Origin: an uncultured bacterium
GTDB taxonomy: Bacteria > B130-G9
Direction of reading: 5' to 3'
Assembly (NCBI GenBank): GCA_965372715.1
Contig: CBDVDH010000030.1
Span: 1-44,385, forward strand
Length of the DNA: 44,385 nucleotides
A model generated the notes under the pieces. It saw nothing but the letters and a program-made list of their open reading frames with translations. It did no database searches and was not told the DNA's origin. The translations under genes were made by a program, and so were the position numbers. Position 1 is the stretch's first letter, and each line of letters begins with the position of its first letter. Shown here piece after piece: positions 1-40,002 of this stretch.

Positions 1-165
1 CATGTAGGCGGGCGGGTCTGAGACACCGCCCCTACAGGCCGATTCCGACAATCGCGTCGCATAAGAAAACCGCCGCGTCGATCTTGACAATCGGCCGTAT
101 TCCCTGTATCGTTGTTGTCTGAATGGACAACGAAATCCTCGCCAATCGAATTATGACCCAGCCTC
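1..165 (+). mobile_element. MITE-like element family A, copy 1 (5'-truncated by the window edge)
   Basis: Aligns without gaps over 165 bp to 13546-13710. Ends in TIR TTATGACCCAGCCTC and contains one REP-like unit GGGCGGGTCTGAGACACCGCCCCTAC. Confidence 0.85.
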
Positions 166-438
166 TTCCAGCCTGCCATTATTGAATGCGCCGCCGGCAA
201 AACGTCCCGCTCTGACAGATAGTTCATCCTCGCTGCTCGCGTCTTTGCTGGGCGCTGCAAATGCGAGCGCTCGAAAATCGAGCTTGTGATTTTTCGCCTG
301 AGCTTCGATCGCTTAAATCACAGGTTTTCAAGCGCGCTCGATAAAGATGATCCGGCCTTCTAGGCGGTGATCGCCCTTCCATGCACCATTTTGTAGGAGC
401 AGGCCTTGTGTGGCTAGCCCATAAGTCGGCGTCGGGTC

Positions 439-511
439 GTAGGGGCGGTGCTTGCCCCGCCCTGTGTGCATTCGGCAGATCAGAGGAGGGTGCGGCAAGC
501 AGCACCCCTAC
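439..511. repeat. Inverted pair of GTAG-type REP-like palindromes (REPIN-like)
   Basis: GTAGGGGCGGTGCTTGCCCCGCCC (439-462) faces GGGTGCGGCAAGCAGCACCCCTAC (488-511). A further degenerate GTAG unit lies at about 393-420. Confidence 0.7.
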
Positions 512-9209: not shown

Positions 9210-10244
9210 TCACAGGGCGAGGTTCGGCGTCGCGTCTAGGTCGAGGCCGGCGAATTGCCTTTTCTCAAGATGGTGAAACGCGGCGCCGGCGATCATTGCG
9301 GCGTTGTCGGTAGAAAGCGACTTTGGTGGGAATATGACTCGGAGTCCGGTCTTCTGAGCCGCTTCCGAGAAAGCCTTGCGCAGGGCGCCGTTTGCTGAAA
9401 CACCCCCGCCAAGCGCGAGAACAAAGACCCCTCTTGAGGCCGCAAGCCTCAACGTCTTTTGGATCAGCACCCGGAATACGGCTCTCTGGAAGCCGGCGCA
9501 TATCCTCTCGAGCAAGTCCGGCCCGATCCTGTCAGGGACCTCATCGGATGATGTTATCTGAAGATCGAACCTCAGGTAGTTCAGCACCGCGGTCTTGAGG
9601 CCAGAGAAACTGAAATCGTAGTTATCCTGCTTGATCATTGGGCTGGGGAATGTCACACAATCGCCGTCGGATTGGCTCGCAAGCGACTCGATTATCGGGC
9701 CGCCCGGATACCCCAGTGAGAGGGCCTTAGCAACCTTGTCAAAAGCCTCTCCTGCCGCGTCGTCAACCGTCCGGCCGACGAGCTCGTATGAACCCAGTTC
9801 CTTCACGACATAAAGACTAGTGTGCCCACCCGATACGACCAGTGAGACAAATGGGAAATCGTACTCAACACCCGTGACCATAAAGGGGGAATTGATGTGC
9901 CCCTCGATATGATTCAAGGGTATCAAGGGCAGGTCCCGCGAGTATGCGATCGCCTTTGCTGCGCCTATCCCAACAAGCAGCGCGCCGACTAAGCCCGGTC
10001 CGCGCGTGACGGCGACCGCGGAGAGATCGTCGAGCGTGCAGCCCGCGTCTGAAAGAGCCTTTCTGATAACCCAGATTATGTTCTCAACGTGCTTTCTACA
10101 AGCGATCTCCGGAACAACGCCGCCATATTCTGCATGATCGGCGGTCTGGGAGGAGACAACGTTGGAGAGGATTTCCTCGCCGTTTGAGACGACCGCGCAG
10201 GATGTATCGTCGCAGGATGTGTCTATGCCCAGGATGAGCGGCAA
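9210..10244 (-). CDS. tsaD: tRNA N6-adenosine threonylcarbamoyltransferase TsaD
   Basis: LGIDTSCDDT, GGVVPE, NHIEGH, SGGHT, FSFSGLKT, TDNAAMI. Confidence 0.97.
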   Translation of the reverse strand: MPLILGIDTSCDDTSCAVVSNGEEILSNVVSSQTADHAEYGGVVPEIACRKHVENIIWVIRKALSDAGCTLDDLSAVAVTRGPGLVGALLVGIGAAKAIAYSRDLPLIPLNHIEGHINSPFMVTGVEYDFPFVSLVVSGGHTSLYVVKELGSYELVGRTVDDAAGEAFDKVAKALSLGYPGGPIIESLASQSDGDCVTFPSPMIKQDNYDFSFSGLKTAVLNYLRFDLQITSSDEVPDRIGPDLLERICAGFQRAVFRVLIQKTLRLAASRGVFVLALGGGVSANGALRKAFSEAAQKTGLRVIFPPKSLSTDNAAMIAGAAFHHLEKRQFAGLDLDATPNLAL

Positions 10245-10250
10245 CGTGGT

Positions 10251-11042
10251 CTAGACCTCGGTTTCCTTCCCGAGAGAAGCGATGTCAAACAGATGAAGCG
10301 GTTTCTCTTGGCCCGACTCCATGTCAAAAGCGAACAGCCCGCTTCCGTCCTTTGACAGCCGCAAGAAACATAAACTGCCTTCGTTGAAGCCGGCAATCAT
10401 CACTAGCAGCTTCTTTCGCTTATCGACGACCATCTCGGAAAATATCGTCCGGTGACCATGGCCATAGACGACGAGGTCCGCCCCGGAGCTCATCCTCTTA
10501 TACGCAGATTCAAAGCAATGATAGTAGAAGCCAGTGTTCTTACCGATTACGTAATTCCTGCTAACGTGTGCGCACCAGTTCGCGACGCTGAGGCCAATGT
10601 GAGGCGGGAATATCTGAAACAGCCAGGTTATGGGTTTGCTTCTTACAACCTTTCTAAGAAGCCTGTATCCGGTGTCCTCACGGTCGATGAGGTCGCCGTG
10701 CTCGACGTGAACCCTGGCCCCCAGATAGCAAAGCTGCGCAGCATCGCTGAAGATCATCGCCGGGAGACAGCTTTCAAAAAAGGGCCCCGGCGCGAAATCG
10801 TGGTTGCCGTGGAGATACTTGAACTTGACGCCGCTATCGGCTAGTTCGAGCATCTTCGACAGCGCCGGAACGTAGCAGTAAGGGACCACGTCGCGGTAGC
10901 CGAACCAGAAGCTGAACAGATCGCCATTGATGATGATCGACTCGGCTTCGGGCCTCACGAAATCGAGAAAGCGAACGAACCCAGCCTGAAGGCGATCATC
11001 CTTGGGCCCAAGATGCAGGTCCGAAATCGCGATAAGGCTCAT
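10251..11042 (-). CDS. UDP-2,3-diacylglucosamine diphosphatase (LpxH/LpxG-like metallophosphoesterase)
   Basis: ISDLHLG, GDLF, GNHD, HGD and GHGH motifs of the calcineurin-like fold, with LpxH-type 'D.GYRLLRKVVR'. Confidence 0.75.
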   Translation of the reverse strand: MSLIAISDLHLGPKDDRLQAGFVRFLDFVRPEAESIIINGDLFSFWFGYRDVVPYCYVPALSKMLELADSGVKFKYLHGNHDFAPGPFFESCLPAMIFSDAAQLCYLGARVHVEHGDLIDREDTGYRLLRKVVRSKPITWLFQIFPPHIGLSVANWCAHVSRNYVIGKNTGFYYHCFESAYKRMSSGADLVVYGHGHRTIFSEMVVDKRKKLLVMIAGFNEGSLCFLRLSKDGSGLFAFDMESGQEKPLHLFDIASLGKETEV

Positions 11043-11114
11043 ATAGCTGATGTATTCTCCCTTGCTAGCCCATCAAAGAAGACGAGCACGGTGAACGTGT
11101 TGAGCGGAGGCAAT

Positions 11115-11377
11115 GAGGCTGAGTCATGGTAGATTGCTGAAGATTTCGTTGTGCATTTGCACAACATGATACATCACATCGCGTTGGCTGCAAGATCAAC
11201 GGGTGCTGTGGTCATTTGCGAGACGATTGCCGGAATTGCCTTGTAGGGGCGTGGTCTCAGACCCGCACGCCTAGATCAATCCCGTCAGATATGGGGCATC
11301 CTGGACGACCATCATTCAGAGCGGGCGGGTCTGAGACCACGCCACTACATACCGGCGACGAATTATGACCCAGCCTC
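11115..11377 (-). mobile_element. MITE-like element family A, complete diverged copy (263 bp)
   Basis: TIRs GAGGCTGAGTCAT...ATGACCCAGCCTC. The reverse complement aligns along 13445-13710. Internal inverted REP pair GTAGGGGCGTGGTCTCAGACCCGC / GCGGGTCTGAGACCACGCCACTAC. Confidence 0.85.
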
Positions 11378-11437
11378 CCTGAACCACCCCCTGACTGGAA
11401 TCCTGATTGGAATGATATACACCCTCTTCGGAGATGA

Positions 11438-13225
11438 TCAGGGAGAGAAGCCCTTGAGGAACTTGCGCCTCGTTGGGTGCCGGAGCTTCCTCAGGGCCTT
11501 GGCCTCGATCTGGCGGATACGCTCGCGGGTGACGTTGAACATAATACCCGCCTCCTCAAGCGTGTGCTCGTATCCGGTGTCGATACCCATCCTGAGCCTT
11601 ATGACCATCTCCTCGCGCGGAGTCAGATACTTCCTCAACAAATCACGCGTGATCTCCCTGAGATTCTGGCGATCGACCGAATCGCTCGGGGACATTATCT
11701 TCTTGTCCTCGATGAAGTCGCCAATGTGGCTGTCCTCCTCCTCGTTGATCGGGGTCTCAAGCGAGATCGGTTCTTGAGCGATCTTCATGATCTTGCGTAT
11801 CTTGTCAGCAGGCATCGCAAGCCTCTGCGCCAGCTCATCAGGTGTTGGCTCTCGACCATACTCTTGGACCAGGTAACGGGAGGTCCGAACGATGCGATTG
11901 ATCGTCTCGATCATGTGAACGGGTATCCTGATCGTCCGAGCTTGGTCCGCCATTGCTCTGGTGATAGCCTGACGAATCCACCAGGTAGCGTAGGTTGAGA
12001 ACTTGTAGCCTCGCTTGTATTCGAATTTGTCAACCGCCTTCATTAGGCCTATGTTGCCCTCTTGGATGAGGTCAGACAGATGCAGGCCGCGGTTGACATA
12101 CTTCTTTGCGATGCTCACCACGAGGCGCAGATTGGCCTCGGAAAGCTCTCGCTTCGCATCCTTTGCGAGCTCGTGGCCCATCGCGACCTTGTGCGAGGTC
12201 TGCATCAGCCCCGCCAAAGTCATACCCGTCTCTGCTTTGATCCTCTTTATCTTCCTGCGCCGATCCTTGACTATACTATTGACCTCCTCGAGCTCCTCAA
12301 GAGTAAAGCCGACCTGCGACTCCTTGCGAATCCTGTCCTCAGCCGGGAGCGAGTGGAGCTTCCGCATCCAGCTCCTCACATCGCGGACCGTCATCCCGCA
12401 GTGTTCTTCATACTTGCGTATCTCGCTCTCACATTCTGCCCATCGATTCAGAACATCCCGTATTCGGGCGATCAACTTGTTAATGTATTTCTCGCTCAGA
12501 TTAAGAGACATCAACCTCTCGACAAGCCGGGCGAAGAACTTCCCTGCCTTCTTCCTCTCTTCCCTCGTCCCTCCGGATTCGCGCTTGCAGACTCGTATCG
12601 TGTTTGAGTATTCCCTGTGAGTTGACTTTACGTCTGCAAGCGTATCGAAAACCCGTTGCCGTTCCTCATCTTCGTCGAAATTCTCGCGATAGTCCTCGAC
12701 CTTAACGATCGCTCGGATGTTCTGCCGTCGTCTGCGGTCAGCGGCGAAACGCAACAGGTCCTTTACGCTCATCGAACACGAGACGACCGCCTTGAGAACC
12801 TTGGTCTTGCCCATCTCTATTCTCTTAGCGATTCTAACCTCGCCCTCTCTGTCCAACAGCGGGACTTTGCCCATGTCCCTGAAGTACATCTTCAGCGTGT
12901 CGGAAACGTTTACCGGGGTGTGTTCCTTCGCAACGTCGTAATGATGAGCTTCCTCCTCGATCTCCAACTCCTCATCGGCGGACTCCGGCGAATCATCAGA
13001 TGACGACTTCTCCAAAAACCGGTCAATGAACTCGTCCGCCCTGTCATCTACTATCTCGATGCCGTTCTGGCTGAGAGCCATCATGAGTTCATCCAGCTCA
13101 TCACCGGAAATCGGGACACCGGAAGGCAGCATATCGCTTATCCACTGGTAGCTCACAACCTTACGAGCCCTTGCCTCCTGAACGAGTCCGTCCCGTACTT
13201 CGGCTAGCTTTGTCTTTGATACCAT
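11438..13225 (-). CDS. rpoD: RNA polymerase primary sigma factor (sigma-70)
   Basis: Region 1.1/1.2, non-conserved region, [47 protein letters not shown]. Confidence 0.97.
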
Positions 13226-13330
13226 TTAGTTACCTCTAGACAGGTTGGGTCTCAGATAGGCCCTCGTCACCGGATGAGAGCTAAAGGCTAGAACACCTGG
13301 GATCGCTCCTAACATACTCATGCCATCTCT

Positions 13331-13359
13331 ACATTAGGGTCTGCCGGACGATTTGTCAA
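13331..13359 (-). promoter_or_regulatory. Putative sigma-70 promoter of rpoD
   Basis: Minus strand TTGACA-N17-TAATGT about 105 bp upstream of the start codon. Confidence 0.45.
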
Positions 13360-13444
13360 GAAAGTCTTCTGCGAAAACCTATCTGAAGGAGGCCGTCCGA
13401 ATGATCCGCTGGCCCGAATGACACGGACTGTGGGTCTCACGGCA

Positions 13445-13710
13445 GTGGGTGTCTCATAAGTCGTTGCGGTTGTGTAGCGGGCGGTGTCTCTGACCCGCCC
13501 TTTCGAATTGATGCTCGCATAAGATGCCTCGTATCCGGAGGGATTCATGTAGGCGGGCGGGTCTGAGACACCGCCCCTACAGGCCGATTCCGACAATCGC
13601 GTCGCATAAGAAAACCACCGCGTTGATCTTGACAATCTGCCGTATTTCCTGTATCCTTGTTGTCTCAATGGACGACGAAATCCTTGCCAATTGACTTATG
13701 ACACAGCCTC
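13445..13710 (+). mobile_element. MITE-like element family A, complete copy (266 bp)
   Basis: Degenerate left TIR GTGGGTGTCTCATAAG, right TIR CTTATGACACAGCCTC, GGCA on both flanks (possible 4-bp TSD), internal inverted REP pair at about 13474-13580. Confidence 0.85.
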
Positions 13711-13714
13711 GGCA

Positions 13715-13736
13715 GTGGGAGGCTTTCCAGCCTGCC
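13715..13736. repeat. GTGG-type REP-like palindrome
   Basis: GTGGGAGGCTTTCCAGCCTGCC; related copies at 166-177 (half), 20709-20775 (pair) and 44369-44385 (truncated). Confidence 0.7.
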
Positions 13737-13800
13737 AAAGAAAGTGTCTCCCACGAGGGAATGTTGTGTGCCAGATGCAGCGCAGGTGGCGACCGGCTGG

Positions 13801-14553
13801 TTACGCGGGACCGAGGGCGCAGCGGAGAGTGGCGCACTTGCCGCAGACCTCGGACTTGTCGAGGTCAAGGAAGTTCTCGGCGTTTTCCGAGCAGTGCTCG
13901 AAACAAGGGGCCGCCTTGAAGCCGTCAGTCTGAATCGCGTCGACCGGACATGCTTGAACGCATTCTGTGCAGCTCTTATCGCGCAGATAAGCGCAAAGCT
14001 CTCCGACAGGTTTTGGCGAAGTCCCTAATTCCTGCGTCGTAAGTAACGATATTAGCCTGCCGGCGCAGCCACTAGCTGTAATTAGCATCTTATTGAGGCC
14101 ATATCGGCCTAGGCCGCAGAGGAACCCGACCAGCTTGTGAGACCACTCGGCAGCAAGTGTCTCACGGTCGAAGACGCCGGTTGGCGGAACCACCCGCGCC
14201 TTTTGACCCCACGCAATCAGAGTGAGAGCAACGACAGTGCCTACCCGATGAATGAGTGTGTTCGTTTTGACGTAGGCCTCGGCCCACTCCCGCGATGCAA
14301 ACCTACCACCACGATTGAGAGTCACAACCCGCTCGCTGAACGGCAAGAATATCCCGACCGCGCTCTTGGCGCCGGGCAAGACCTGCTCTGGCCGAACGTG
14401 CCACTCGGACGCATCGGCAAAGGCCTGCTTCGCCTCGGGACTCTTCAGGTCGCAGAATCCCATCAAGAGAGGTCTGTATAGGGAAGCATCCCCTTCTTGG
14501 TCCAGCACGCGCTGGGCCACGTCCAGCAGTAAACCCTTTAGGTCTTCGCTCAA
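13801..14553 (-). CDS. Epoxyqueuosine reductase (QueG)-like iron-sulfur protein
   Basis: P..VLPGAKSAV, WSHK....CGLG.YGLN, C-terminal C..C..ACP and CGKC ferredoxin-type cysteines. Confidence 0.7.
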   Translation of the reverse strand: MSEDLKGLLLDVAQRVLDQEGDASLYRPLLMGFCDLKSPEAKQAFADASEWHVRPEQVLPGAKSAVGIFLPFSERVVTLNRGGRFASREWAEAYVKTNTLIHRVGTVVALTLIAWGQKARVVPPTGVFDRETLAAEWSHKLVGFLCGLGRYGLNKMLITASGCAGRLISLLTTQELGTSPKPVGELCAYLRDKSCTECVQACPVDAIQTDGFKAAPCFEHCSENAENFLDLDKSEVCGKCATLRCALGPA

Positions 14554-14647
14554 GATCGTTTAGCCTTAAGACAAGACACGTTTTCAAGCCCAATCGCGAA
14601 TGAGCCGAGCCTCGCCTGCTCGCCATCTCAAGGATATTAACACACCC

Positions 14648-16192
14648 TCAGATAACGATCACGATTATCATCGGCCCCATCGACGAGTCGGAGGTCCCGA
14701 AGGTCGCGGAGCCCGTAGCGGATGAGAGCAACTTGGCATAGCCCACACCCCGCACCGGGCCGCTTAAGACATCCCTCTGCGCGGAAAGCACGTTTGACTC
14801 GGAGACTACGATGAAACGCACGCCCCGGTCCACATAGAACTGCCGCGAGCCTTCGCCGGCGCTTCTGATCTTTATTGTATCGAATTGTCTGGATGGCAAT
14901 GTCAAGCTTCCCCTTTCGACGGCGATTCTTGCGCCCTGCGGGGCATGAAGCTGGAGCCACTCCACGGCCGCATCGAATGTCGGCTTCCTCGACAGCCTCT
15001 CAACTGAACCGATGCTGCCGGCCATCGACAACGCCAGGATAGCCAGAATGAGCGTGGTCGCAAGGCGTCTGAACTTTGCCAGCAGCCTGAATGAGCTCCT
15101 GAGCATCCTGAGAGAGCCCTGCACACCAGCGGCGGCAAAAACGCAGAGGACGGGAATAGATGCCACGCCACACGACGATGCCTCGTTCTGGGCGCAGAAC
15201 CCGACGACGAGCGCCAATATCCCATAGCCCAACCAGGGCACATCCTTCCTCTTTGCACGGACGACAGCGCAGCCTAGGCCGACCGAGGCGGCGATTAGCA
15301 TCGGCATCGCCCCGAAAGCGAATGGCCGAGGGGCCGCCGCGGTGTAGAGCGCGTCAAAACCTTCCAAGCCAGCCCACTGCTTTGCCCCGAAGAAGTGGTA
15401 GGCGAAGAGCGCGCCAACCGCCCCGTACATTGCCCAGCGTGGATTCGTTACGCTTGGCGACTGTAAGGAAGGGCGGGTCTTGCGGCCCGAGAAATGCAGA
15501 AAGAGCCCGCTGACAGCCACGATGCAGAGCAGGATTGCCAAGAGAATTGGCCCGTCAAAGGCTGACACGGCAAGCCCTAGCAGCAGAAGGAAGAGGCAGA
15601 TGCGGGTCAGATCCGGCGACGAAGGTTTCATCGTATAGAGAAGGGCAGTCCACAGCAGCACAGCCAAGACGCCTGCGAACGAGCCAGCGACTAGCAGGAA
15701 TCCCGCGAAAAAGAAACTCAGCCGCGCCTTTTTTTCAGAGGACGTTATGACAAGTAGGAGTCCCAGCAGACCCAGGAGACCGATTGCTGTCTCACGAAGC
15801 GCAAATCGTGACCAGAATGACGCCAGGGGATGCACAGCGAGGAGCGCGGTGGCGAGTAGAGCGGCTAACTGACCATAGAGCTTTTTGGCAATGACCCAGG
15901 CCAGAAGCACCGATGCACAGGCCAGAATTGCCCCCACAAGTCGGCCAGCTCTTATGCGGGACGACGAACGCTCCGCATCCAGAATCCGACTATTTCGCCG
16001 CGCGGCGAATTCGGTCTCGTGTGTCGAGTCAATGCCCAGCGCTGCAAGGAGAATGCCGCCGGGTCCACCGGACAGCATCTTGGTCTCAGCAGAATGGGGC
16101 CAACGAGGCAGGCCGAAATCCAGATACGCGACTCGCAGAATAGCAGCCAGGCAGAGAAGGAGGACCAGCGTCGGGATTCGGAACCTAATCAC
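14648..16192 (-). CDS. Membrane glycosyltransferase, family 39/ArnT-like
   Basis: 'LRVAYLDFGLPRWPHSAE' N-terminal loop, 'GRLVGAILA...AKKLYG..AALLATALLAVHP' PMT_2-like pattern, many TMs. Confidence 0.65.
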   Translation of the reverse strand: MIRFRIPTLVLLLCLAAILRVAYLDFGLPRWPHSAETKMLSGGPGGILLAALGIDSTHETEFAARRNSRILDAERSSSRIRAGRLVGAILACASVLLAWVIAKKLYGQLAALLATALLAVHPLASFWSRFALRETAIGLLGLLGLLLVITSSEKKARLSFFFAGFLLVAGSFAGVLAVLLWTALLYTMKPSSPDLTRICLFLLLLGLAVSAFDGPILLAILLCIVAVSGLFLHFSGRKTRPSLQSPSVTNPRWAMYGAVGALFAYHFFGAKQWAGLEGFDALYTAAAPRPFAFGAMPMLIAASVGLGCAVVRAKRKDVPWLGYGILALVVGFCAQNEASSCGVASIPVLCVFAAAGVQGSLRMLRSSFRLLAKFRRLATTLILAILALSMAGSIGSVERLSRKPTFDAAVEWLQLHAPQGARIAVERGSLTLPSRQFDTIKIRSAGEGSRQFYVDRGVRFIVVSESNVLSAQRDVLSGPVRGVGYAKLLSSATGSATFGTSDSSMGPMIIVIVI

Positions 16193-16376
16193 CTCGCCCC
16201 TGTGTCACTGAAGCGCCAAACTTGGCGATGCAGCAGAATCGGAAGAACTATCTCTACAATAGTGCGATTAAATCATCAAATCGGATGCTGTGAAAGAACA
16301 GCAACGTGCAAGGTTCCTCTATCGTAGTGCGATTAAACCATAACCAAGATTACGGGTCCGTCGCGCCAACGTCAAG

Positions 16377-16699
16377 GGGTTTGACCCTGGATTGTACTTA
16401 ACATGGCTGCGTTATTGCCTATCCCACCGAGTCGCGGCCAGGTCGCCCAGCTTTAGCCGAGGCGACAGGTTGGCTATCATTGTATTAACTCCGATTTCAA
16501 TCGGGAGACCCCAGGACCCCGACACGCTCCTCTCCATCCTCCTCAGATCAAGATTTCAGGGAGGAGGAGGGAGTCGCGTCGGCTTCCAGACCACCCGACT
16601 CGAAGTCGGGTGCTAATATAATGAGAGCCATCCATCGCGCCGTGTTGAAACACGGCGCCCTGGATACGTTAACTCTACCTACAATCTAGAGTCACACCC
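16377..16699. mobile_element. MITE-like element family C (323 bp) with 8-bp target-site duplication and a long internal palindrome
   Basis: TIRs GGGTTTGACCCTGGATTGTA (16377-16396) and TACAATCTAGAGTCACACCC (16680-16699), 17/20 complementary. ACGTCAAG lies directly on both flanks (16369-16376, 16700-16707). Confidence 0.8.
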
Positions 16700-16780
16700 A
16701 CGTCAAGGACTTTGCGGGAGGAGTTTTCGCAGAATGGAGACGGAAGAAGATGGAAAGGGGAAGCAACGTTGCGGAGCCTG

Positions 16781-17362
16781 TTAGGGCGTGGCCGGGCCAA
16801 CGCCGAGTTCTCTTTCAAGCGGAGGGACGAAGAGGAAATACTTCGTCTGGTTGATGATCTCAGCATCAACTAGGAGAAGGTCGTCACTGCCGGGCTCGTT
16901 GCCATAAATCCTTGCTCCCGACGGCGATGTTGCCCCGAAGTGCATCGTCTGGACCGTGCTTTTCTGAGTTCTTGGGTTCCTCGACCATACCGAGATTGTC
17001 AGGCTTGGTCTGACTAAGCCAAATTGCTCCAGCCCGCGCCCGACCTGCTCAAGCCGAAGTTCTCTCACGTATTCTGCTTTCTGAAGAATAGAGATGAGGC
17101 GCTCGACTTCGTGCTGGTCGGCTGGCGCCCTTTGCGGCGCGGTGAGCATCCATCGTCCTTCCTGCTTGATCGCGGTGAGCTGCTTGTCCGCGGTCTGTAT
17201 CTCGAGCTTTGTGATGTGCTCGGACGAGAGACCGCTGAAAAGATGCGGAGGAGGAGGCGGCTGAGGCGCTTCGGAAGCGCTATGCTCAAATAGCACGTAA
17301 TACGCGCCAAGCAGGACAGCTATGGACGGTAATACGATGGTTCTCCAGACGCTTGCTCGCAT
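16781..17362 (-). CDS. DUF4340-like membrane-anchored protein
   Basis: N-terminal TM 'LLGAYYVLFE', 'W.LTAP...PAD...V..LI..L', 'LEQFGL..P', 'FG..SP.G..IY' pattern. Confidence 0.65.
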   Translation of the reverse strand: MRASVWRTIVLPSIAVLLGAYYVLFEHSASEAPQPPPPPHLFSGLSSEHITKLEIQTADKQLTAIKQEGRWMLTAPQRAPADQHEVERLISILQKAEYVRELRLEQVGRGLEQFGLVRPSLTISVWSRNPRTQKSTVQTMHFGATSPSGARIYGNEPGSDDLLLVDAEIINQTKYFLFVPPLERELGVGPATP

Positions 17363-17375
17363 GGCATTAGCCTTC

Positions 17376-18419
17376 TCAGTTAGCGATATGAGAGCCTCTT
17401 GCAACAAATCTGAACTTGAGTCTTTGCGCTTTCAGCTCGGCAAGCTCGGCCTCGACCGCGGCAGCCTTTTCAGGCGGGCAAATGAGCATCAAGAACCCGC
17501 CTCCGCCGGCGCCGGTGATCTTGCCGCCCAAGGCCCCGTTCCGCTTGGCCGACTCGTATAGCTCGTCAATGTGCGAAGATGAAATCGTGGAGACAATTCG
17601 CTTCTTGGCCCGCCAGGACAGGTCAACCAGCTCGGCCACCGTGGCGAGGTCATCTGAGAGAAACGCGGATTTCATTCGCTCCGCAAGCCGCTTGATCTCG
17701 CGCAGGTATCCGACGGTTGCGCGATGACCGCTGGCGGTTTTTTCTCTCTGCTCGGAGAGTATTGTGGCCGAGTCTCTGCTTTTCCCCGTGAAAAAAAGCA
17801 TCGTCCACGCCTCCAGCGAACGAAGGCGCCTGCTGTCGATGACAAGCGGCGTGACGGTGGTCTCTGAGGTCGAGAAGCGGACCTCGTTAAGCCCGCCGAA
17901 TGCTGAGGCGTATTGGTCCTGTTTGCCGATGGGCCTCTTGAGTTCTTCGATCTCGATGGTCGAGGCGAGCTCCGCGATAACCCCTGCGGAGAGCCTTTTG
18001 CCAAGGATGGCAGAGACCGCCTTGATCGCGCCGACTGTCGCTGCGCCTGAAAGTCCCAGGCCGGAGCCCGGCGGGACGTCGGACGCTGTGTGGATTTGAA
18101 GGCCAGTTGGTGGACTAAAGGCGCGGATTACCGCCTTGACAATACCGAATACTCCTTTTATATCGACATTGCCGATGTCATCGCACTCTTCGGTGAGGCC
18201 GTAGTCGGCTGAGGTGATGACAAGCCTTGAATCTCTGCGTAAGGAGACAACGCAACGGAAGTATTTGTCGATCGTTGCGGAAACTACGAGACCGCCAAAC
18301 CTGGCGTAGAAAGCCTCGAGGTCAGTTCCGCCACCGCCGAAACTTATCCGAACCGGGGTCTTAGAGACGATTATCGACGATGGAAACATGGGCGGCAGGG
18401 CTGGTGGCTGTGAGCTCAT
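17376..18419 (-). CDS. GHMP kinase, D-glycero-alpha-D-manno-heptose-7-phosphate kinase (HddA)-like
   Basis: TPVRISFGGGGTD, PPGSGLGLSG, GKQDQY, GGKITGAGGGGF. Confidence 0.85.
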   Translation of the reverse strand: MSSQPPALPPMFPSSIIVSKTPVRISFGGGGTDLEAFYARFGGLVVSATIDKYFRCVVSLRRDSRLVITSADYGLTEECDDIGNVDIKGVFGIVKAVIRAFSPPTGLQIHTASDVPPGSGLGLSGAATVGAIKAVSAILGKRLSAGVIAELASTIEIEELKRPIGKQDQYASAFGGLNEVRFSTSETTVTPLVIDSRRLRSLEAWTMLFFTGKSRDSATILSEQREKTASGHRATVGYLREIKRLAERMKSAFLSDDLATVAELVDLSWRAKKRIVSTISSSHIDELYESAKRNGALGGKITGAGGGGFLMLICPPEKAAAVEAELAELKAQRLKFRFVARGSHIAN

Positions 18420-18489
18420 CTATTCGGCGCTGGCTACTGAGCTGCTCTCGTCCCGTGCCGGACGATACGCCCTCCAAGGCAATCGAGCG

Positions 18490-19212
18490 TCACCGATTGG
18501 ACTTGGCCGTTCCCTCGCCGATCTCGGTGCCATAGTGTATCTTAGGCCCGCTGCCCATGGTGGTTTTTTCCTTGTCGCTCTGCTTCTCCTGCTGTGAGAC
18601 GGCAAGGGGTTGAGTCGGCTCAGCTCTTCTGGTGGTGCTGGCCCCGCTCGGCGAAAACTCCGTTGGCCCTATGGTCATGATGTTGCTTGCGGGCGAGGGC
18701 CCGGGGTTAACACATTTCTCGAACATCGCCATGCGCTTTGCGTTCTCAAACCTATCGACAAGATTGCGCATTCTGAGGAAGTCCCGCACTTCGCTGCACC
18801 CCGACTGAAGCCTAATCTCGAACAGCTCAGTAGGTCTGGCGCTGAAGTAGCTTTTGACCTGGGGATGGTTGTATTGGATGTTCACGGCCTGTCGAGCAGT
18901 CAAAAGCCCCATCCGCCAATAATACTCGTAGCCTCGCGATAGGAGAGGGAACTCCGCCATCTTGGCATAACATGCCTGAGCAAGGTTAAAATAGAGCGGA
19001 GCACGCTTTGGACTGAATTTATGCCTCTCATAGCCCTCGTATGAGCCAATTGCGGCTTTGAACACCTTAATGGCGTCGTCAATGCTCCCCTCCGAAAGGA
19101 ACAGAAGACCCTCTTTGTTCCGCTGCGTAGCGAACCAATTGGCCTGAGAGATTGAGTGGACAAGCCACATCGCTATTATTGTGCAAACCATAAACACGAC
19201 GCGTTTTTTCAT
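18490..19212 (-). CDS. Hypothetical exported protein with TPR-like helices
   Basis: Signal peptide MKKRVVFMVC..., 'NKEG......G.IDDAI..FK.AI' and 'LYFNLAQACY' TPR-like pattern, low-complexity tail. Confidence 0.5.
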   Translation of the reverse strand: MKKRVVFMVCTIIAMWLVHSISQANWFATQRNKEGLLFLSEGSIDDAIKVFKAAIGSYEGYERHKFSPKRAPLYFNLAQACYAKMAEFPLLSRGYEYYWRMGLLTARQAVNIQYNHPQVKSYFSARPTELFEIRLQSGCSEVRDFLRMRNLVDRFENAKRMAMFEKCVNPGPSPASNIMTIGPTEFSPSGASTTRRAEPTQPLAVSQQEKQSDKEKTTMGSGPKIHYGTEIGEGTAKSNR

Positions 19213-19272
19213 AGTATTCTCCCGAATCTTATCATCCACGCAAGATGTATAACTACTAGTAATGGGCGGTTC

Positions 19273-19827
19273 CTAGTCAAACGGAGTGCCTGTAGTGTCA
19301 GCATCCTCCGCAAGTGCGTTTTCCAGCGACATAAGCTGCCATCTTATGGGATCGGCCAAGTCCGTAAACCTGCTCCTGCGCTTCACCAGCAGTAGCTTGC
19401 TCCGAACATCGAAGGTTGGGTCCGACCGTGATGTGAAGCAAAAAAGCAGCAGTATCCTATCTGTGGTGTATCTTCTCGTAGCTTTGGGTCTTGCCCACTC
19501 CTTGGTCTCCAATTCGGCCTTTATGTCACGAACAACATCATAAGTAGGTTCGCCTATCCCCAGGTCTGTCCTGATCCTGAAGAGCTTATACAGATCAGCG
19601 TTGTAGCCGCATTTCTTCATAACGTCTTCGGCATTGTGGTTATAGGCCCAAACGTAGGCCTGAACTGTTGCGTCAGGGGTATCGAACTTCGGTTCAAACC
19701 CGCAGCCCACAAGCACAAAAACCATTGCCAAAGAGGCATAGGACAAGGACCGAATACGGACCTGCAGCCACCCTCTACATGAATAAGCGCACCGTTTCAT
19801 CGATGCCGACCCTCGCCGTTGGCCCAA
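19273..19827 (-). CDS. Hypothetical lipoprotein
   Basis: Hydrophobic stretch ending in lipobox-like LVGC, then 'TPDATVQAYV.A' pattern. Start codon uncertain. Confidence 0.5.
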   Translation of the reverse strand: MGQRRGSASMKRCAYSCRGWLQVRIRSLSYASLAMVFVLVGCGFEPKFDTPDATVQAYVWAYNHNAEDVMKKCGYNADLYKLFRIRTDLGIGEPTYDVVRDIKAELETKEWARPKATRRYTTDRILLLFCFTSRSDPTFDVRSKLLLVKRRSRFTDLADPIRWQLMSLENALAEDADTTGTPFD

Positions 19828-20177
19828 ATAATCAACCTGAAGCTAATAGCCCATCGTCAAATGTAAGCGAACGCATAATTCATGTCAACCTCGGAATGGC
19901 AGGAGTTTACGCAACAGGGGAAACAGGCAAAAGGGCAAGAGGGCAATCCTCCTTTTCGGCCGACGTTCGCCGCGCGGCGAAGACTCGCCGAACGGCCAGG
20001 CGAAGCAAGGCGAAGAACAGGGCAAAGGGGGAGTCGTCAACAGGAGACTCTGCATTGGGCTATACTGGCTCTTGAAATCGTCGGGCTCCGTCCTCACATC
20101 CCCCTGGTTCATCGGCAAAATCATGCCCTAATCCTTTTGTCCTACCTTTCCTCTCCTGCTTTACGGGAAGTTCTCAC

Positions 20178-20506
20178 ACCCGAAAAATCAGATTGGGCCG
20201 AGCAAAGAGGGCCTTTTGGAGTGCGTCCGCCGCGCGGCGGATTTCTTTGGTGGTGGCTTGACACCACCCTCTGATGGACGGCTCCTTCGACCTCGCAGAT
20301 AGTGATTCGGAGATACGGACGTTAATCGATGCGAACCGGTGCCGCGTCAAGCCGCGGCAAGTGAAAGCGGCGCCGGGTCAGAAGCACTCCAAATCACCCA
20401 ACGGGTGCAAGATGCATCGCTACTGTATGCAACAAGATCAGCCTTGTGAATGGCTGACGCGAGTTCAAGACACGATGTCAGCGACCATCAATCTGATTTT
20501 TCGGGT
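20178..20506. mobile_element. MITE-like element family B (329 bp)
   Basis: Perfect 18-bp inverted repeats ACCCGAAAAATCAGATTG (20178-20195) and CAATCTGATTTTTCGGGT (20489-20506). Internal inverted pair TTTGGAGTGC...GCACTCCAAA with hairpins. No clean TSD. Confidence 0.7.
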
Positions 20507-20518
20507 CCCACGTTCGGG

Positions 20519-20546
20519 TTGCATTCGGTTAGCAAAGGACTATAGT
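20519..20546 (+). promoter_or_regulatory. Putative promoter of tRNA-Asp
   Basis: TTGCAT-N16-TATAGT ending 11 bp before the tRNA 5' end. Confidence 0.55.
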
Positions 20547-20557
20547 TGTCAAGGGTT

Positions 20558-20635
20558 GGGGTCGTAGTTCAGTTTGGTTAGAACGCCGGCCTGTCACGCC
20601 GGAGGTCGCGGGTTCGAGTCCCGTCGACCCCGCCA
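20558..20635 (+). tRNA. tRNA-Asp (GTC)
   Basis: Acceptor stem GGGGTCG/CGACCCC, anticodon arm CCGGC-CTGTCAC-GCCGG, T-loop GGTTCGAGTCC, encoded CCA. Confidence 0.98.
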
Positions 20636-20708
20636 TCTCACCCCTTGGGCTGCGTTTCTGGGATACAGTAAGCCCCGCTGTTCATGATGTTAAGCCCGGG
20701 ATGAGATC

Positions 20709-20775
20709 TGGGGTATAGCTACTCCAGCCTGCCAGCCAAAACGTGCCAAGCGGCAGGCTGGAAAGCCTGCCCCAC
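20709..20775. repeat. Inverted pair of GTGG-type REP-like units
   Basis: Degenerate TGGGGTATAGCTACTCCAGCCTGCC faces GGCAGGCTGGAAAGCCTGCCCCAC, between the convergent tRNA-Asp and ccdA-like genes. Confidence 0.65.
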
Positions 20776-20851
20776 ACTTGCGAAGCAATCGGCTCCGCGG
20801 GAACACAGCGCTGTCGTTTCATAACGAGCCGAGACATCCGCCGATGCCGTC

Positions 20852-21709
20852 TCAGTTCGAGGCTGTTGCGGCGGTCGCCTGGAGCGCTGATTCGGTTGCC
20901 GAGGCGTTGAACTTTGCATCCGAGGCCGGGGTCAATGGTTCCTCGACCGATTCTGTTGGCTCTTGGAACTCGTCCGGCCATTCCTCGCCATCATCGAAAC
21001 TCGGCGCGAAGTATTCGTTGATTATCGACGAGAGCGAGCCCGTGTATATCATCACGCCAACGACTATCAGCAGAAGACCGGCGGCGATGTTTATCTTGCG
21101 CATGTGCTTCTTGACCTTGGTGAAGTAGCCAAGCGCCGTATCGACGGCGATCGACGTAAGAAGGAATGGGATGGCAATTCCGAGCGAGTAGAAGCACAAC
21201 AGGTAGATGCCCTGCCATATCGTCTCGGACTGGCTGGCGTAGAGCAGAATCGCGCCCAGGATCGGCCCCACGCACGGTGTCCAGCCCAGAGAGAAGGCGA
21301 TGCCGATGAGAAATGAACCGATATAGCCGGCGGGCTTGTTTCTGACCTCAATCTGCTTGTGCTTGGTTAGAAAACTGAGCTTGAGAACGCCCATGATGTA
21401 TAGACCGAAGATCACGACGATAACACCCGCGATCTTGCTGATTATTTCCATGTGTTGCTGGAGCAGAAGGCCGATCTTGCTAGCGCCAGCGCCGAGAGAG
21501 ACGAACACGACGCTGAACCCCAGAATGAAACACAGCGTGCTTAGGACCGTGGTCTTCCTAATCTTGGCGGACTTCTTATCGCTCGTCAGCTCTGAGAGAG
21601 AAAGCCCTGTGATGAAGGCAAGGTAGGACGGGATTATGGGCAATATACAGGGGGATAAAAAACTCGTAAGTCCCGCGAGAAAAGCCATTGCCCAAGATAA
21701 GCTTTCCAC
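20852..21709 (-). CDS. ccdA: Cytochrome c biogenesis protein CcdA (DsbD-family transmembrane)
   Basis: AGLTSFLSPCILPIIPSY and GWTPCVGPILG redox-cysteine motifs; acidic C-terminal tail. Confidence 0.9.
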   Translation of the reverse strand: MESLSWAMAFLAGLTSFLSPCILPIIPSYLAFITGLSLSELTSDKKSAKIRKTTVLSTLCFILGFSVVFVSLGAGASKIGLLLQQHMEIISKIAGVIVVIFGLYIMGVLKLSFLTKHKQIEVRNKPAGYIGSFLIGIAFSLGWTPCVGPILGAILLYASQSETIWQGIYLLCFYSLGIAIPFLLTSIAVDTALGYFTKVKKHMRKINIAAGLLLIVVGVMIYTGSLSSIINEYFAPSFDDGEEWPDEFQEPTESVEEPLTPASDAKFNASATESALQATAATASN

Positions 21710-21775
21710 GTTACAGATTCCTCCTGACAGTGGCGTATGACTGTTTCCTTAGACCGCTGTCGCCGTAATTATGAG

Positions 21776-22888
21776 CTAGAACCGGCGGCTGTTCGGCCGC
21801 GATGGTCCTCTCGATGAGTCACGGCCGTGTGAACCTCTCGATCTCGCATCTGTGCCTTCCCCGCGGCGTTTGCTGAATGACCCTTTGTATCTTCCTGGGG
21901 CGCGGCTGGCTTTCGCCTTTGACGGGTATTCCTTGGGCGGCGACGACGTGAGGAGTATTTTTTCGGGCCTGAGGACCATCGGCAAACTCGGCCGGCGCCT
22001 TTGATCGTCCGGTGACAGCTTCTCTGCCCGGAAAATGCCGATCAGCTTGCCCCGCCAGGTCCGGAGTATTACCGGGTCTCCTATGACCACTTCGCTCGAC
22101 AACCTTATCTGGTCAACGTCAATTGACAGGCCGTTCATTGCGTAGCGCTCGGCCAGCGGGGAGACTTCTCCTTGCGCGTAGTCCGGCAGAATGCCCTCGA
22201 TTGGCTCAAGCATGCCTGTGAGCTCGTTGCGGCCGAGTGTGAAGACGCGGCTATAAGGAATCGCGTCGCTCACGTCCCAGCTCCCGATGTTTGTCCGTTG
22301 TAGTCTAAAAACGTGCGCCCCGCATCCGAGTTTCTCGCCGATATCGGCACAGACAGACCTTATATACGTGCCCTTAGCGCAGGTTATCTTGAGATTTATC
22401 GTTGATCGCGAGAGCGACTGCATCTCCAGGTCATAAATGGTGACGTCCCTCGGCGGGACGTCTGCCTGAAGGCCCTCCCGGGCCAGGACATAGAGCTTCT
22501 TACCATCCCTCTTGATCGCCGAGAATATCGGCGGAACCTGTTTAATCTTCCCACGAAACTCATCCATGACCGACTCGACGTCGGATTCATCAAACTCTGG
22601 GACCTCTCTAACTCGCAGGACCTTGCCCGTCGAGTCGAGTGTGTCCGTGGTCACGCCAAGCTTCATCCAGGCCAAGTAGGATTTCGGCAAATCCACAAGG
22701 TAATCAAGCAGCCTGGTGGCTCTTCCGACGCATAAAAGAAGGACGCCACTTGCGATCGGGTCCAGCGTGCCCGTGTGCCCTACCTTTTTGACCTGCAACA
22801 CCTTTCTGAGCAGGCCCACCACCTCAAACGACGTCTTACCCCTGGGTTTCGAGATGTTCAGTAGTCCGAACGGCTCGTAAACCTTCAT
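21776..22888 (-). CDS. truB: tRNA pseudouridine(55) synthase
   Basis: KVGHTGTLDPIASGVL, QVPPIFSAIK, KGTYIRS; basic C-terminal extension. Confidence 0.96.
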   Translation of the reverse strand: MKVYEPFGLLNISKPRGKTSFEVVGLLRKVLQVKKVGHTGTLDPIASGVLLLCVGRATRLLDYLVDLPKSYLAWMKLGVTTDTLDSTGKVLRVREVPEFDESDVESVMDEFRGKIKQVPPIFSAIKRDGKKLYVLAREGLQADVPPRDVTIYDLEMQSLSRSTINLKITCAKGTYIRSVCADIGEKLGCGAHVFRLQRTNIGSWDVSDAIPYSRVFTLGRNELTGMLEPIEGILPDYAQGEVSPLAERYAMNGLSIDVDQIRLSSEVVIGDPVILRTWRGKLIGIFRAEKLSPDDQRRRPSLPMVLRPEKILLTSSPPKEYPSKAKASRAPGRYKGSFSKRRGEGTDARSRGSHGRDSSRGPSRPNSRRF

Positions 22889-32183: not shown

Positions 32184-33801
32184 TCAGCCGAACAACTTGG
32201 CGTTATCGTCGCTGCGTTGCTTCTTGGCCTTCGGCGCTCTCTTGAACGTGACATTAGTATGCTTCGACGGCGGGTAGTCAATTCCCTTCCCGCGCATGAG
32301 GTCATCGACAGTGAGAACCTGAATGCGCGGGTAGTGCTTATCCCAGCCGGGAGAGTAATAGAAGCCCGCGCCCGCAGCCTCTTCACTCATGCTCTTGGTG
32401 GGACACCGCATCGTGATTAGGACGCCGATCTCTGCTTCCTCGCGGTCCATCACGCCCCGCAGGTCCCGAATGTGAGAGACGGACACGTGGCCCGACTTCA
32501 CGGAGATGATTATCTGCTTTGTATCGGCGCCTTTGCCCTCATCGTGGAAGTAGAGTCTCCCGTCAATCCCCTTGTCGGCGCCTTTCTTCTCCTCGACAGG
32601 CCTCGCCCCAACAAGGCCCAACGCCCACCATTGGAACTGGTATGGATTATGCCTTGCGAGCTCCATCGCGCCGGAGATAGAGACGGGCTCGCCGATAACG
32701 TCAAACTCCTTCCGGATGTTCTCGCCGAACGTGTTCTCGAGCCGATACTTCATGAGCGTCACAGCGAGATGAGTAATGTCGATCCCGATCCATCGGCGCT
32801 TGAGGCGCTGCGCCACGGCGACCGTTGTCCCGCAGCCGCAGAACGGGTCGAGCACCACGTCCCCCTCGCTGCTGCTGGCCCTGACGATCCGCTCCAAGAG
32901 CGCCTCGGGCTTCTGCGTCGGGTAGCCAAGCCGCTCCTTGGCCTGCGAGTTAATTGGGGGGATGTCAGTCCATACCCCCGTGACAGGCTGGCCTTCGGTA
33001 TCGTCCAAATGCCGTTTGTATCTTGGCATGCCAGTGCGCGTGAAAACGATCCGGCCTTCGGCCATCCATCTGTCGATGGTTTCCTGCTCCATCCAATGGC
33101 ACCCCTTGGGCGGCGCTATCTGCCTGTCCCCGAACTTCCGCGGAGGACCGGGGCCTTTGCCATGCGCAACGACGAGCTGATATCGGTGCCCCGATTCGTC
33201 TTTTCGGCGATAATGTGTCCGAACATACTCATCATCATAACGCTGATAGCTTGGGTTCCAGAACACTTCGTCTCTATCCACGGCGTAATAGAGGATCGTG
33301 TCATGTATTGCATGGTAACTCGTAGCCCCCCCATGACTCGCGGACCTTTTCCAGATGATCTCCGACCTGAAGTTCTTCACGCCAAAAACCGAATCCATCA
33401 GCAGCTTCAAGAAATGGGTCGCAGTGCAGGTAGATACTGCCGGTCGGCTTCAGCACGCGCCTCAGCTCGACGAGGCGCGGGGCCATCATGGCGAGGTAGG
33501 CCAGCATATCATTCTCGCCCAGGAACTTCCTGAACGCCTGCATCGCTCCCAATACGGGGCCGCCGGCCTCCACAACCAGCTGATACGCAAGCGCCGCCTC
33601 CTGGTCCCAGCGCCAAGTGTCCTTGAACGCCTTGACCTGCGCCGTTGACTGAGTCCCGTTTCTCTCCGCGAACAGAACGTTATAGTCCTGATCGCTCTTA
33701 AACGGCGGATCAAGATAGATCAGATCAACCGATTCATCCTTGACGTATTGTCTCAAGACCTCAAGGTTGTCGCCGTAATACAAAGCGTTCTTGTCGATCA
33801 T
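32184..33801 (-). pseudogene. Frameshifted beta-class amino-DNA methyltransferase fused to a C-terminal Mrr-like PD-(D/E)xK domain
   Basis: 5' part has LYYGDNL, YLDPPF and GSIYLHCDP. The frame changes at about 33415. 3' part has [25 protein letters not shown] and 'GADKGIDG...IISVKSG'. Confidence 0.88.
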
Positions 33802-33873
33802 CGCCAACCTTCACCTGTTTCCGGAATAAGAGAACACATTCCAGATGTATTCTGGCTTTCCGGCCACATTTCA

Positions 33874-39754: not shown

Positions 39755-39979
39755 TCAGAGCTTCAGGTTCTTCGTCGTGTGCCCGTCCTCTTTCCCTGCT
39801 TTCGGGGCTTTTTTGAACGTGATGTTTGTGTGGCGTGACGAGGGATAGTCGATGCCCTTGCCGCTCTAACTGCTCTTAAACGGCGGGTCGAGATAGACAA
39901 GATCAACGGATTCCTTCTCCAGGTGTAACCTGATGATCTCCAGATTATCACCATAGTAGAGGAGGTTCTTATCTTCCAT
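39755..39979 (-). pseudogene. Internally deleted copy of the methyltransferase-endonuclease gene
   Basis: Translates MEDKNLLYYGDNLEIIRLHLEKESVDLVYLDPPFKSS* then, in frame, SGKGIDYPSSRHTNITFKKAPKAGKEDGHTTKNLKL*. These match the first and last ~36 residues of the 32184-33801 gene. Confidence 0.9.
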
Positions 39980-40002
39980 CGCTAGACCCTAACACCACGA
40001 TG

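Follow-up and report, generated by a model that had tools for sequence, protein, structure and literature searches.

The contig CBDVDH010000030.1 (assembly GCA_965372715.1), a stretch of 44,385 nucleotides from an uncultured bacterium of the GTDB lineage B130-G9 that we refer to as the window, contains three families of short repeats, which we term A, B, and C. These repeats are very probably miniature inverted-repeat transposable elements (MITEs), in which the terminal inverted repeats (TIRs) of three different DDE-type insertion sequence (IS) families surround a non-coding, hairpin-rich interior. In families A and C, the interior carries a REPIN, i.e., a doublet of inverted repetitive extragenic palindromes (REPs) of the kind linked to REP-associated tyrosine transposases (RAYTs), whereas the interior of family B is REP-like in shape only. 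A preliminary description of the window had recognized three unrelated families with TIRs around an off-centre inverted hairpin pair, and all of them were recovered, with boundaries agreeing to within 1–2 nt. The complete copies of the window and their parts are as follows:

11113–11379, plus strand: family A element, copy A1, putative MITE with the TIR GAGGCTGAGTCAT... at one end and ...ATGACCCAGCCTC at the other
11242–11349, no strand: REPIN cargo of A1, inverted GTAG-tagged REPs at 11242–11270 and 11321–11349 with a 50-nt spacer
13445–13710, minus strand: family A element, copy A2, putative MITE with the 4-bp duplication GGCA at 13441–13444 and 13711–13714
13472–13582, no strand: REPIN cargo of A2, REP arms at 13479–13500 and 13555–13576 with GTAG/CTAC tags
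16369–16377, no strand: left target duplication of C, ACGTCAAGG, the last G also being readable as the first TIR base
16377–16699, plus strand: family C element, putative MITE with the TIR GGGTTTGACCCTGGATTGTA / TACAATCTAGAGTCACACCC of about 20 nt, starting at 16377/8
16443–16655, no strand: REPIN-like cargo of C, an imperfect palindrome of 213 nt with one hairpin per arm and two flanking hairpins
16700–16708, no strand: right target duplication of C, ACGTCAAGG
20174–20178, no strand: left target duplication of B, TCACA
20179–20505, plus strand: family B element, putative MITE with the perfect 18-nt TIR CCCGAAAAATCAGATTG at both ends
20210–20410, no strand: inner module of B, a pair of hairpins, a variable centre of about 70 nt, and a second pair in inverted order
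20506–20510, no strand: right target duplication of B, TCCCA, which matches the left one at 4 of 5 positions

We compared the window's genome (G000; 3.56 Mb in 112 contigs, 95.9% complete, the window being contig C30) with six other genomes of the same taxonomic family, all seven assemblies being fragmented into 112–560 contigs. One of these genomes, G001, belongs to the same genus and is 94–95% identical to G000 and collinear with it across window positions 9500–22000. All three families are multi-copy in G000, with 157, 86, and 54 high-scoring segment pairs for A1, B, and C, respectively (blastn, E ≤ 1e-3), which settles the concern that B and C might be single-copy. Complete TIR-bounded copies number 21 for A, 20 for B, and 9 for C, and there are many one-ended copies in addition. 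The families have no mutual similarity (lowest cross-family E-value, 0.43), and the elements of all three are non-coding and short (260–330 bp). Folded as single-stranded DNA, they reached z-scores of −8.5 (C), −6.0 (B), and −5.4 (A2) relative to shuffled sequences, and no shuffle folded equally well. The termini themselves were found in G000 at 120 sites for TIR-A (≤3 mismatches), at 107 sites for TIR-B (≤3 mismatches, in comparison to 3–14 sites for three scrambled patterns; 63 sites at ≤2 mismatches), and at 17 sites for TIR-C (≤2 mismatches, in comparison to none with the reversed pattern). At least 12 contig ends of G000 stop within B elements (C15, C58, C93, C68, C79, C47, C53, C70, C89, C39, C2, and C19), three of them exactly 55 nt inside B. 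As near-identical B copies break the assembly, the copy numbers given here are lower bounds.

Within the taxonomic family, B is present in all six other genomes and C in five of the six, and TIR-C sites occur in all seven genomes; neither B nor C was detected in 34 sampled genomes from other families. A contig search with the TIR-A 17-mer returned 27 loci, ten of them in one metagenome-assembled genome of an uncultured bacterium and the others as single matches in unrelated taxa. As the matches elsewhere are only scattered single ones, there is no sign of family A outside the lineage.

The window's B and C elements are missing from G001 as entire units, from TIR to TIR, and a single copy of the target is found in their place. 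The B site in G001 reads TTC-TCACA-GCGTT, with 20179–20505 absent, and the C site reads GCGCCA-AGATCAAGA-GCTT, with 16377/8–16699 absent, so that both insertions include their cargo. More generally, the copy boundaries coincide with the TIRs and are accompanied by target duplications, as the preliminary description had expected, and the length of these duplications is family-specific. Perfect 4-bp duplications flank 10 of the 21 TIR-A-bounded elements, in comparison to 0 of 21 in each of seven shifted registers. For B, a perfect 5-bp duplication was found at 4 of 20 elements and a match at four or more of the five positions at 8 of 20, with 0–1 perfect cases in the controls. As the last G of the left C copy could equally be the first TIR base, the duplication of C is 8 or 9 bp; with a register tolerance of ±1 nt, five of its nine elements matched, at 9/9, 8/9, 7/9, 7/9, and 6/9 positions, respectively.

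A search of G000 with the DDE_Tnp_1 profile gave one full match, which lies within a 1.8-kb element (C5:32081–33904). This element is an intact IS with TIR-A at both ends and an open reading frame (ORF) of 509 aa that matches the IS1182 family of NCBIfam (NF033551) with 297.6 bits (cut-off 270) over profile positions 2–487 of 488, and the Pfam domains DUF772 (N-terminal), DDE_Tnp_1, and DDE_Tnp_1_6. About 19–22 nt per end are common to this IS and the family A MITE. Copies of the IS1182 type with TIR-A are also present in G003 and G004.

Both the IS and the MITEs of family A are found in REP hairpins. A REP-stem motif occurs in the 26-nt outward flank of 63 of the 120 TIR-A termini, in comparison to 6.8% of random 26-mers, and the two flanks of 6 of the 21 complete A elements rebuild at least seven of eight stem pairs in strict register, which is seen at only 0.14% of random sites. 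Several further A elements rebuild the REP stem one base out of register. The four nucleotides duplicated by family A are the loop of the REP hairpin (CACG, TTCC, CTTG, CAGG, and others). The IS1182 copy of G000 itself is located in the REP hairpin CTTTGGCAGGCT-GGAA-AGCCTCCCC, with GGAA on both sides, and the G004 copy is likewise inserted in a REP loop, its duplication being TTCG. Judged from these traces in the sequence, family A evidently targets the loops of REP hairpins and duplicates 4 bp upon insertion.

For family B, the TIR-B-like end CAATCTGATTACTGGGG (14 of 17 matches) was found in G001 (contig C19) about 225 nt past the C-terminal third of an IS1380-family transposase. Variants of TIR-B on MITE copies come within one base of CAATCTGATTACTGGGG, and the transposase fragment covers profile positions 288–418 of 419 (E 1.4e-32; 112.9 bits, cut-off 180). 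For family C, contig C96 of G003 contains a 59-aa reading frame that corresponds to an ISKra4-like C-terminus and has its stop codon 8 nt before an exact TIR-C. This reading frame matches ISKra4 with an E-value of 3.2e-9 (36.4 bits, cut-off 205) and ISLre2 more weakly (E 1.9e-5), and the TIR-C end of the remnant recurs with 100% identity at two contig ends of G004. The ISKra4-like remnant bearing TIR-C is cut by a frameshifted remnant of an IS3-family integrase (positions 376–982 of L062, G003:C96). Of the ISs with the same TIRs that the preliminary description had hoped for, an intact one thus exists for A (IS1182), and only remnants exist for B (IS1380) and C (ISKra4-like).

Several other candidates were set aside. 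An N-terminal IS1380 fragment beside the left end of B in G001 (contig C46) was dropped as evidence for hairpins within the IS, the B piece being oppositely oriented; this locus looks like a MITE that inserted into or beside an IS1380 remnant. Two IS4-family ISs (G001:C145 and G005:C403) and an IS4/IS701-like gene (G005:C8) have other termini and were rejected as partners. In Pfam searches of G000, rve, DDE_Tnp_ISL3, DDE_5, and DDE_Tnp_4 remained without a match and Transposase_mut matched small fragments only; these results explain neither TIR-B nor TIR-C.

In the mechanism that we propose, a transposase acting in trans would bind the 17–25-bp termini and move the entire TIR-to-TIR unit, and its staggered cut of the target would leave a duplication of the length typical of the enzyme. 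For family A, this would be an IS1182-family transposase that enters the 4-nt loop of a REP and duplicates it; for family B, an IS1380-family enzyme with a 5-bp duplication; and for family C, an ISKra4/ISLre2-like enzyme with a duplication of 8–9 bp. As the REPINs of A and C lie within such shells, they would also be copied whenever the DDE shell transposes.

The identity of the cargo was examined by locating the inner parts, or cores, of the elements throughout G000 and by analyzing their neighborhoods. REPs are very abundant in this genome, with 388 sites for GTAGGGGCG in comparison to about 49 expected, with 36–138 sites at ≤3 mismatches for each of five REP types, and with 56 strict matches to intact REP hairpins of the GTAGGGGCGGCTCACGAGCCGCC type. 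A generic scan for GTAG plus a hairpin lacked specificity (848 sites in 3.56 Mb in comparison to 352 in 2.1 Mb of shuffled sequence), and specific REP motifs were counted instead. The A core was found at 68 loci, at 15 of which both TIR-A copies were present within 260 nt, at 24 only one, and at 29 none; a random flank would contain a TIR match with a probability of 0.004. Sixteen free copies of the A core align only from GTAGGGGCG to CGCCCCTAC, i.e., their boundaries are at the REPs. For the C core, with 38 loci and the same distance, the respective numbers are 9, 2, and 27.

G000 contains four Y1 transposase genes that are recognized at the Pfam level and two that are more divergent, and thus at least six RAYT-like genes. 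The C core adjoins RAYT genes at five loci in G000, G001, and G003 (two of them in G001); in G000, it lies directly 3' of two RAYT genes, with three tandem core copies at C2. Inverted REPs of the A-core type are present on both sides of a 191-aa RAYT-like gene in G001 (contig C40). The REPs of the A cargo carry the GTAG tag at their 5' end; no such tag was seen in the hairpins of C or B when their sequences were read. As the A and C cores occur free of TIRs and beside RAYT genes, A and C carry true REPINs. GTAG REPs also occur around and inside the reading frames of the two divergent RAYT-like genes of G000 (C18:38017–38613 and C58:15239–15922), for example in frame at C18:38310–38380, where the tblastn alignment spans the REPs as extra residues. 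Moreover, free REPINs of the A type and the C type stand about 45 nt apart at five G000 loci, in a mosaic that is similar to bacterial interspersed mosaic elements (BIMEs):

C7:50734–51089, A/C REPIN mosaic
C21:49018–49374, A/C REPIN mosaic
C26:15958–16313, A/C REPIN mosaic
C42:2258–2614, A/C REPIN mosaic
C9:16428–16752, A/C REPIN mosaic

The interior of family B differs from this picture. Its inner arms of 48 nt are 71% complementary, and its four hairpins are GC-rich, with the loops GCTTGA / TCAAGC in most copies. Among copies, the hairpin stems vary through paired changes, and in some cases a different hairpin stands at the position of the usual one. An alignment of the 20 TIR-bounded B elements showed that the inner quartet is collinear in 19, the exception being an element of 119 bp. 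Among 52 loci with the B core, 23 have both TIR-B copies, 22 have one, and only 7 have none. A weak 40-nt match to the B core beside a RAYT-like gene in G004 (contig C3) proved to be an unrelated small hairpin near ordinary GTAG REPs. As the B core is nearly always within the shell and no link to RAYTs was found for it, we treat the B quartet as an integral part of the MITE that is REP-like in shape only. Hence, the proposal of the preliminary description that REPINs travel inside DDE-mobilized MITEs is supported for A and C, with their free copies and RAYT flanks, and for B in shape only.

The most serious alternative, which we nevertheless regard as improbable, is that REPINs entered dispersed MITE copies independently and do not travel with the MITE as it transposes. 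REPs are indeed very abundant in the genome, and the TIR-A shells hold REPs of different families. However, the position of the cargo is constant within each subfamily of shell copies, which applies to 19 of 20 B elements, all nine C elements, and the standard A elements, and the window's C and B copies were gained or lost whole, with their cargo. The preliminary description had raised the possibility that TIR-bounded copies would usually lack the REP pair, yet the pair is present in 19/20 B and 9/9 C elements, and at least one REP, with its GTAG tag, is present inside 20 of the 21 TIR-A-bounded elements. Cargo is missing in only one B and one A element, both of which have unrelated interiors. 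Nor do the element copies end at the REP hairpins instead of the TIRs; many free REPINs do end there, and this is what a nested origin predicts.

Shell-borne C cores also cluster on a tree, in contrast to what independent entry would produce. This quick tree included 32 cores, six shorter core loci being left out. The window copy and three other shell-borne cores fell into one starred set of six rows, which also includes one core with a single TIR and one free core, and the other five shell-borne cores grouped with three free ones at weak support. Overall, the tree required 4–5 label changes in comparison to 8.1 in shuffles, and only 4 of 500 shuffles were as low.

Still less credible is the view that the whole units, including the TIRs, are substrates of Y1 transposases of the RAYT or 'TIRYT' type and that the outer repeats are the outermost arms of REPIN- or BIME-like structures, without any DDE enzyme. 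The six or more RAYT-like genes of G000 would be compatible with this view, and Y1 genes with long TIRs, as well as REP dimers in longer palindromes, are on record in the portion of Di Nocera et al. (2013; PMC3733652) drawn on here. The elements also fold as long foldbacks. Against this stand the duplications of 4, 5, and 8–9 bp, each length being specific for one family. Y1 enzymes of the IS200/IS605 type are not known to make duplications. Moreover, the termini are those of DDE ISs or their remnants, and the RAYT genes are flanked by cores only: neither TIR-A nor TIR-B, the two termini scanned for, was found at any of 16 loci at ≤3 mismatches. Least tenable of all is the idea, put forward in the preliminary description, that the elements are shrunken remnants of larger TIR elements with a REP-flanked cargo gene, because, even if an off-centre doublet could mark the position of a lost gene, the intact IS1182 holds the transposase gene only, with neither a REP doublet nor a second gene, no REP pair lies between transposase gene and TIR in the IS1380 and ISKra4-like remnants, and no full-length relative with the same TIRs and a REP-flanked passenger gene was seen in the seven genomes.

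A number of observations weigh against our interpretation that the three families are MITEs of DDE-type ISs, with REPINs inside, and have to be considered together. No full-length transposase of the IS1380 or ISKra4 type was found in the seven genomes of the family, where all fragments score below the curated cut-offs, so that the partner of B is deduced from one remnant and that of C from two. The B and C MITEs may now be immobile; as all seven assemblies are fragmented, repeated ISs may also simply be unassembled. The lengths to which we compared the duplications, 4–5 bp for IS1380 and about 8–9 bp for ISKra4/ISLre2, are general background values, of the kind found in ISfinder-type tables. 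About half of all copies have degenerate duplications or none; degenerate duplications fit the identity of 70–85% among copies. In three to five of the 21 A elements, the flanks are reverse-complementary and not direct repeats, which we tentatively attribute to recombination between copies. Empty orthologous sites, which the preliminary description had suggested as a check, were obtained for the window's B and C elements; for A, they were sought in G001 for two copies and not obtained, the flanks lying on different contigs. At these two sites, both G001 contigs run on past the junction (L089/L088 and L086/L087), which suggests that REP/MITE sites were rearranged between the species of G000 and G001. 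The B and C indels could have arisen through gain in G000 or through loss in G001. RAYT genes with the same REP units, a further expectation of the preliminary description, were found for the A type (in G001) and for C, and none of 16 RAYT-like loci examined had the B core next to it. The G000 assembly has no close copy of the RAYT from contig C40 of G001, its nearest gene being 48% identical and associated with another REP type. Finally, transposition itself is deduced from the traces that it would have left in the DNA.

The A shells differ in what they carry. [G/T]TAG occurs within 40 nt inside the TIR at 77 of the 120 TIR-A termini, and 55 of these 77 could be assigned to four REP families that begin 8–14 nt in (type 1, n = 30; type 3, n = 21; type 2, n = 3; type 4, n = 1). 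By eye, about 19 of the 22 unassigned termini have GTAG REPs too. In one type of A shell, the cargo is a REPIN of 108 nt, a REPIN of 71 nt that belongs to another family, or just one REP, and the junctions are identical in each case, with GGAATCGGCCT followed by GTAGGGGC on one side and CCCCTAC followed by (A/G)CAACCGCAACGACTTATG on the other; the junction pair of the REPIN is GTAGGGGC / GCCCCTAC. The A shells contain at least three REP families, two of them in one slot about 10–13 nt inside one TIR and the third at equal distance inside the TIR of another A subfamily. As different REP families occupy one slot with identical junctions, the cargo is presumably either exchanged or collapses after capture. 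It may have entered or been exchanged via homology at the shared GTAGGGGC heads, through the action of RAYTs, or by being captured repeatedly.

From this, we derive a bolder reading that is conceivable, if clearly less likely than not: DDE shells could be vehicles with a REPIN slot, in which REP families of different RAYT systems are swapped at identical junctions. The same plan, with another TIR and another cargo, recurs in a sister genus (g4), where a TIR-C shell holds a different inverted pair of GTAGCC REPs around a central hairpin. Since the IS1182 transposase would select REP hairpins for insertion, the REPs inside the shells could in addition recruit this transposase or mark the element for it. 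We infer which transposases act, that the cargo was captured and is not ancestral, and by which route it is exchanged.

Among the A copies of the window, A1 is an old one, with approximately 73–78% identity to other copies. It occupies the orthologous site in G001, has no recognizable target duplication, and shows a REP half on its right flank only; its REP arms are 93% complementary. A2, with REP arms that are 95% complementary, is also present in G001, where at least 20 copies are approximately 86–92% identical to it. Additional traces of family A and two neighboring genes are the following:

1–165, minus strand: partial family A element, putative MITE truncated by the contig start; TIR-A at 147–163 with one mismatch, GA/TC at 164–165
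392–510, plus strand: terminus of another TIR-A subfamily; TIR-A at 412–428, REP half outside, GTAGGAGCAGGCCTTGTG
11438–13225, minus strand: gene for a primary sigma factor (RpoD/SigA-like) between A1 and A2; ORF of 595 aa, the protein clusters being named sigma-70/SigA
20558–20635, plus strand: tRNA-Asp (GTC), 52 nt to the right of B

The truncated copy at 1–165 is 93% identical to 13546–13710 and has the orientation of A2, and its outward flank is a REP half (GGCAGGCTGGAA). In the terminus at 392–510, a REPIN of a different REP family begins 10 nt inside TIR-A (GTAGGGGCGGTGCTTGCCCCGCCC ... CACCCCTAC); no partner TIR-A was detected nearby. A1 and A2 bracket the primary sigma factor gene in inverted orientation, similar to a composite transposon (window 11113–13710), but their outer flanks do not share a duplication, and G001 has both copies as well.

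The C insertion site is closely preceded by a pair of 25-nt direct repeats (CTCTACAATAGTGCGATTAAATCAT, 84% alike; 16252–16276 and 16317–16341), the second of which is conserved in G001. A GTCAAG(G) motif is found in or within about 20 nt of B and C insertion sites (16369–16377 and 16700–16708 in the window, and on other contigs), as well as just upstream of tRNA-Asp (20544–20551); it may reflect a preference for certain targets or belong to promoter regions. Apart from the three families, the window contains two 111-nt stretches that are 71% alike (33694–33804 and 39872–39982), the first at the start of a minus-strand ORF.

Each ingredient of this system is already known, namely MITEs, REPINs with their RAYTs, REP-targeting ISs, and hairpin-targeting members of the IS1182 family, and it is the combination that constitutes a new variant. 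An open-access literature search returned no description of REPINs as cargo of DDE-type MITEs. Like the bacterial MITEs Correia/NEMIS, RUP, Nezha, and MITEAba12, the elements are short, non-coding, and multi-copy, with TIRs of 17–25 bp, target duplications, and strong folding, and their termini match those of an IS, or of IS remnants for B and C, whose transposase would act in trans. In contrast to these MITEs, no deleted IS body forms the interior; that of A and C is the REPIN of a RAYT system, and in A the REPIN family varies between shell copies at one slot. Papers on the REPIN/RAYT system itself include those of Bertels and Rainey (2011) and Nunvar et al. (2010). As in that system, two inverted GTAG-tagged REPs with a spacer are found, free copies are bounded by REPs, and REPs flank Y1 genes in inverted orientation. 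The difference is that a sizeable share of the REPINs described here resides in DDE-type TIR shells and is gained or lost together with them, at least one TIR-A being present at 39 of 68 A cores and at least one TIR-C near 11 of 38 C cores.

Specific insertion into REPs is reported for IS1397, ISKpn1, ISPsy8, ISPa11, ISPpu9/10, and ISRm22 in excerpts of Tobes and Pareja (2006; PMC1525189), which name the families IS3, IS110, IS4, IS256, and IS5. In comparison to the cases in these excerpts, the IS described here belongs to the IS1182 family, enters the hairpin loop with a 4-bp duplication, and is represented mostly by MITE derivatives. Within the IS1182 family, the staphylococcal IS1272 / TnSha1 chooses DNA hairpins with little primary-sequence specificity, and other members target palindromes (Siguier et al., 2015, as cited in the excerpted text of Furi et al., 2016; PMC4923244). 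According to the same text, IS1272 cuts the stem and deletes part of the hairpin without a duplication, whereas family A keeps the stem and duplicates the 4-nt loop. REP dimers that are regularly inside a longer inverted repeat (GTAG-15 of A. variabilis and CGTC-1 of H. neapolitanus) and mosaic clusters of different REPs, i.e., BIMEs, appear in the cited portion of Di Nocera et al. (2013; PMC3733652). There, such flanks are read as target palindromes, with no further analysis in that portion, whereas the outer repeats described here are IS termini with duplications, empty sites, and partners.

What these findings mean is seen most directly for the REPINs. With a share of two REPIN families inside elements that bear the marks of DDE transposition, a second copying route for REPINs would exist, and counts and trees of REPs and REPINs are open to confounding by hitch-hiking on MITEs. 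REPINs are commonly treated as a population that is copied by its RAYT only and inherited vertically, and their mode of spread is unsettled. The IS1182 family, with its loop-duplicating mode, would join the known REP-targeting ISs. An intact IS1182-family transposase, approximately 60 MITE copies, defined REP-loop targets, and 4-bp duplications together offer a testable system. If DDE shells are indeed vehicles with a REPIN slot, mobile systems of the HUH type and the DDE type would be mutually dependent in these bacteria, and REPINs would not be replicated by RAYTs alone.

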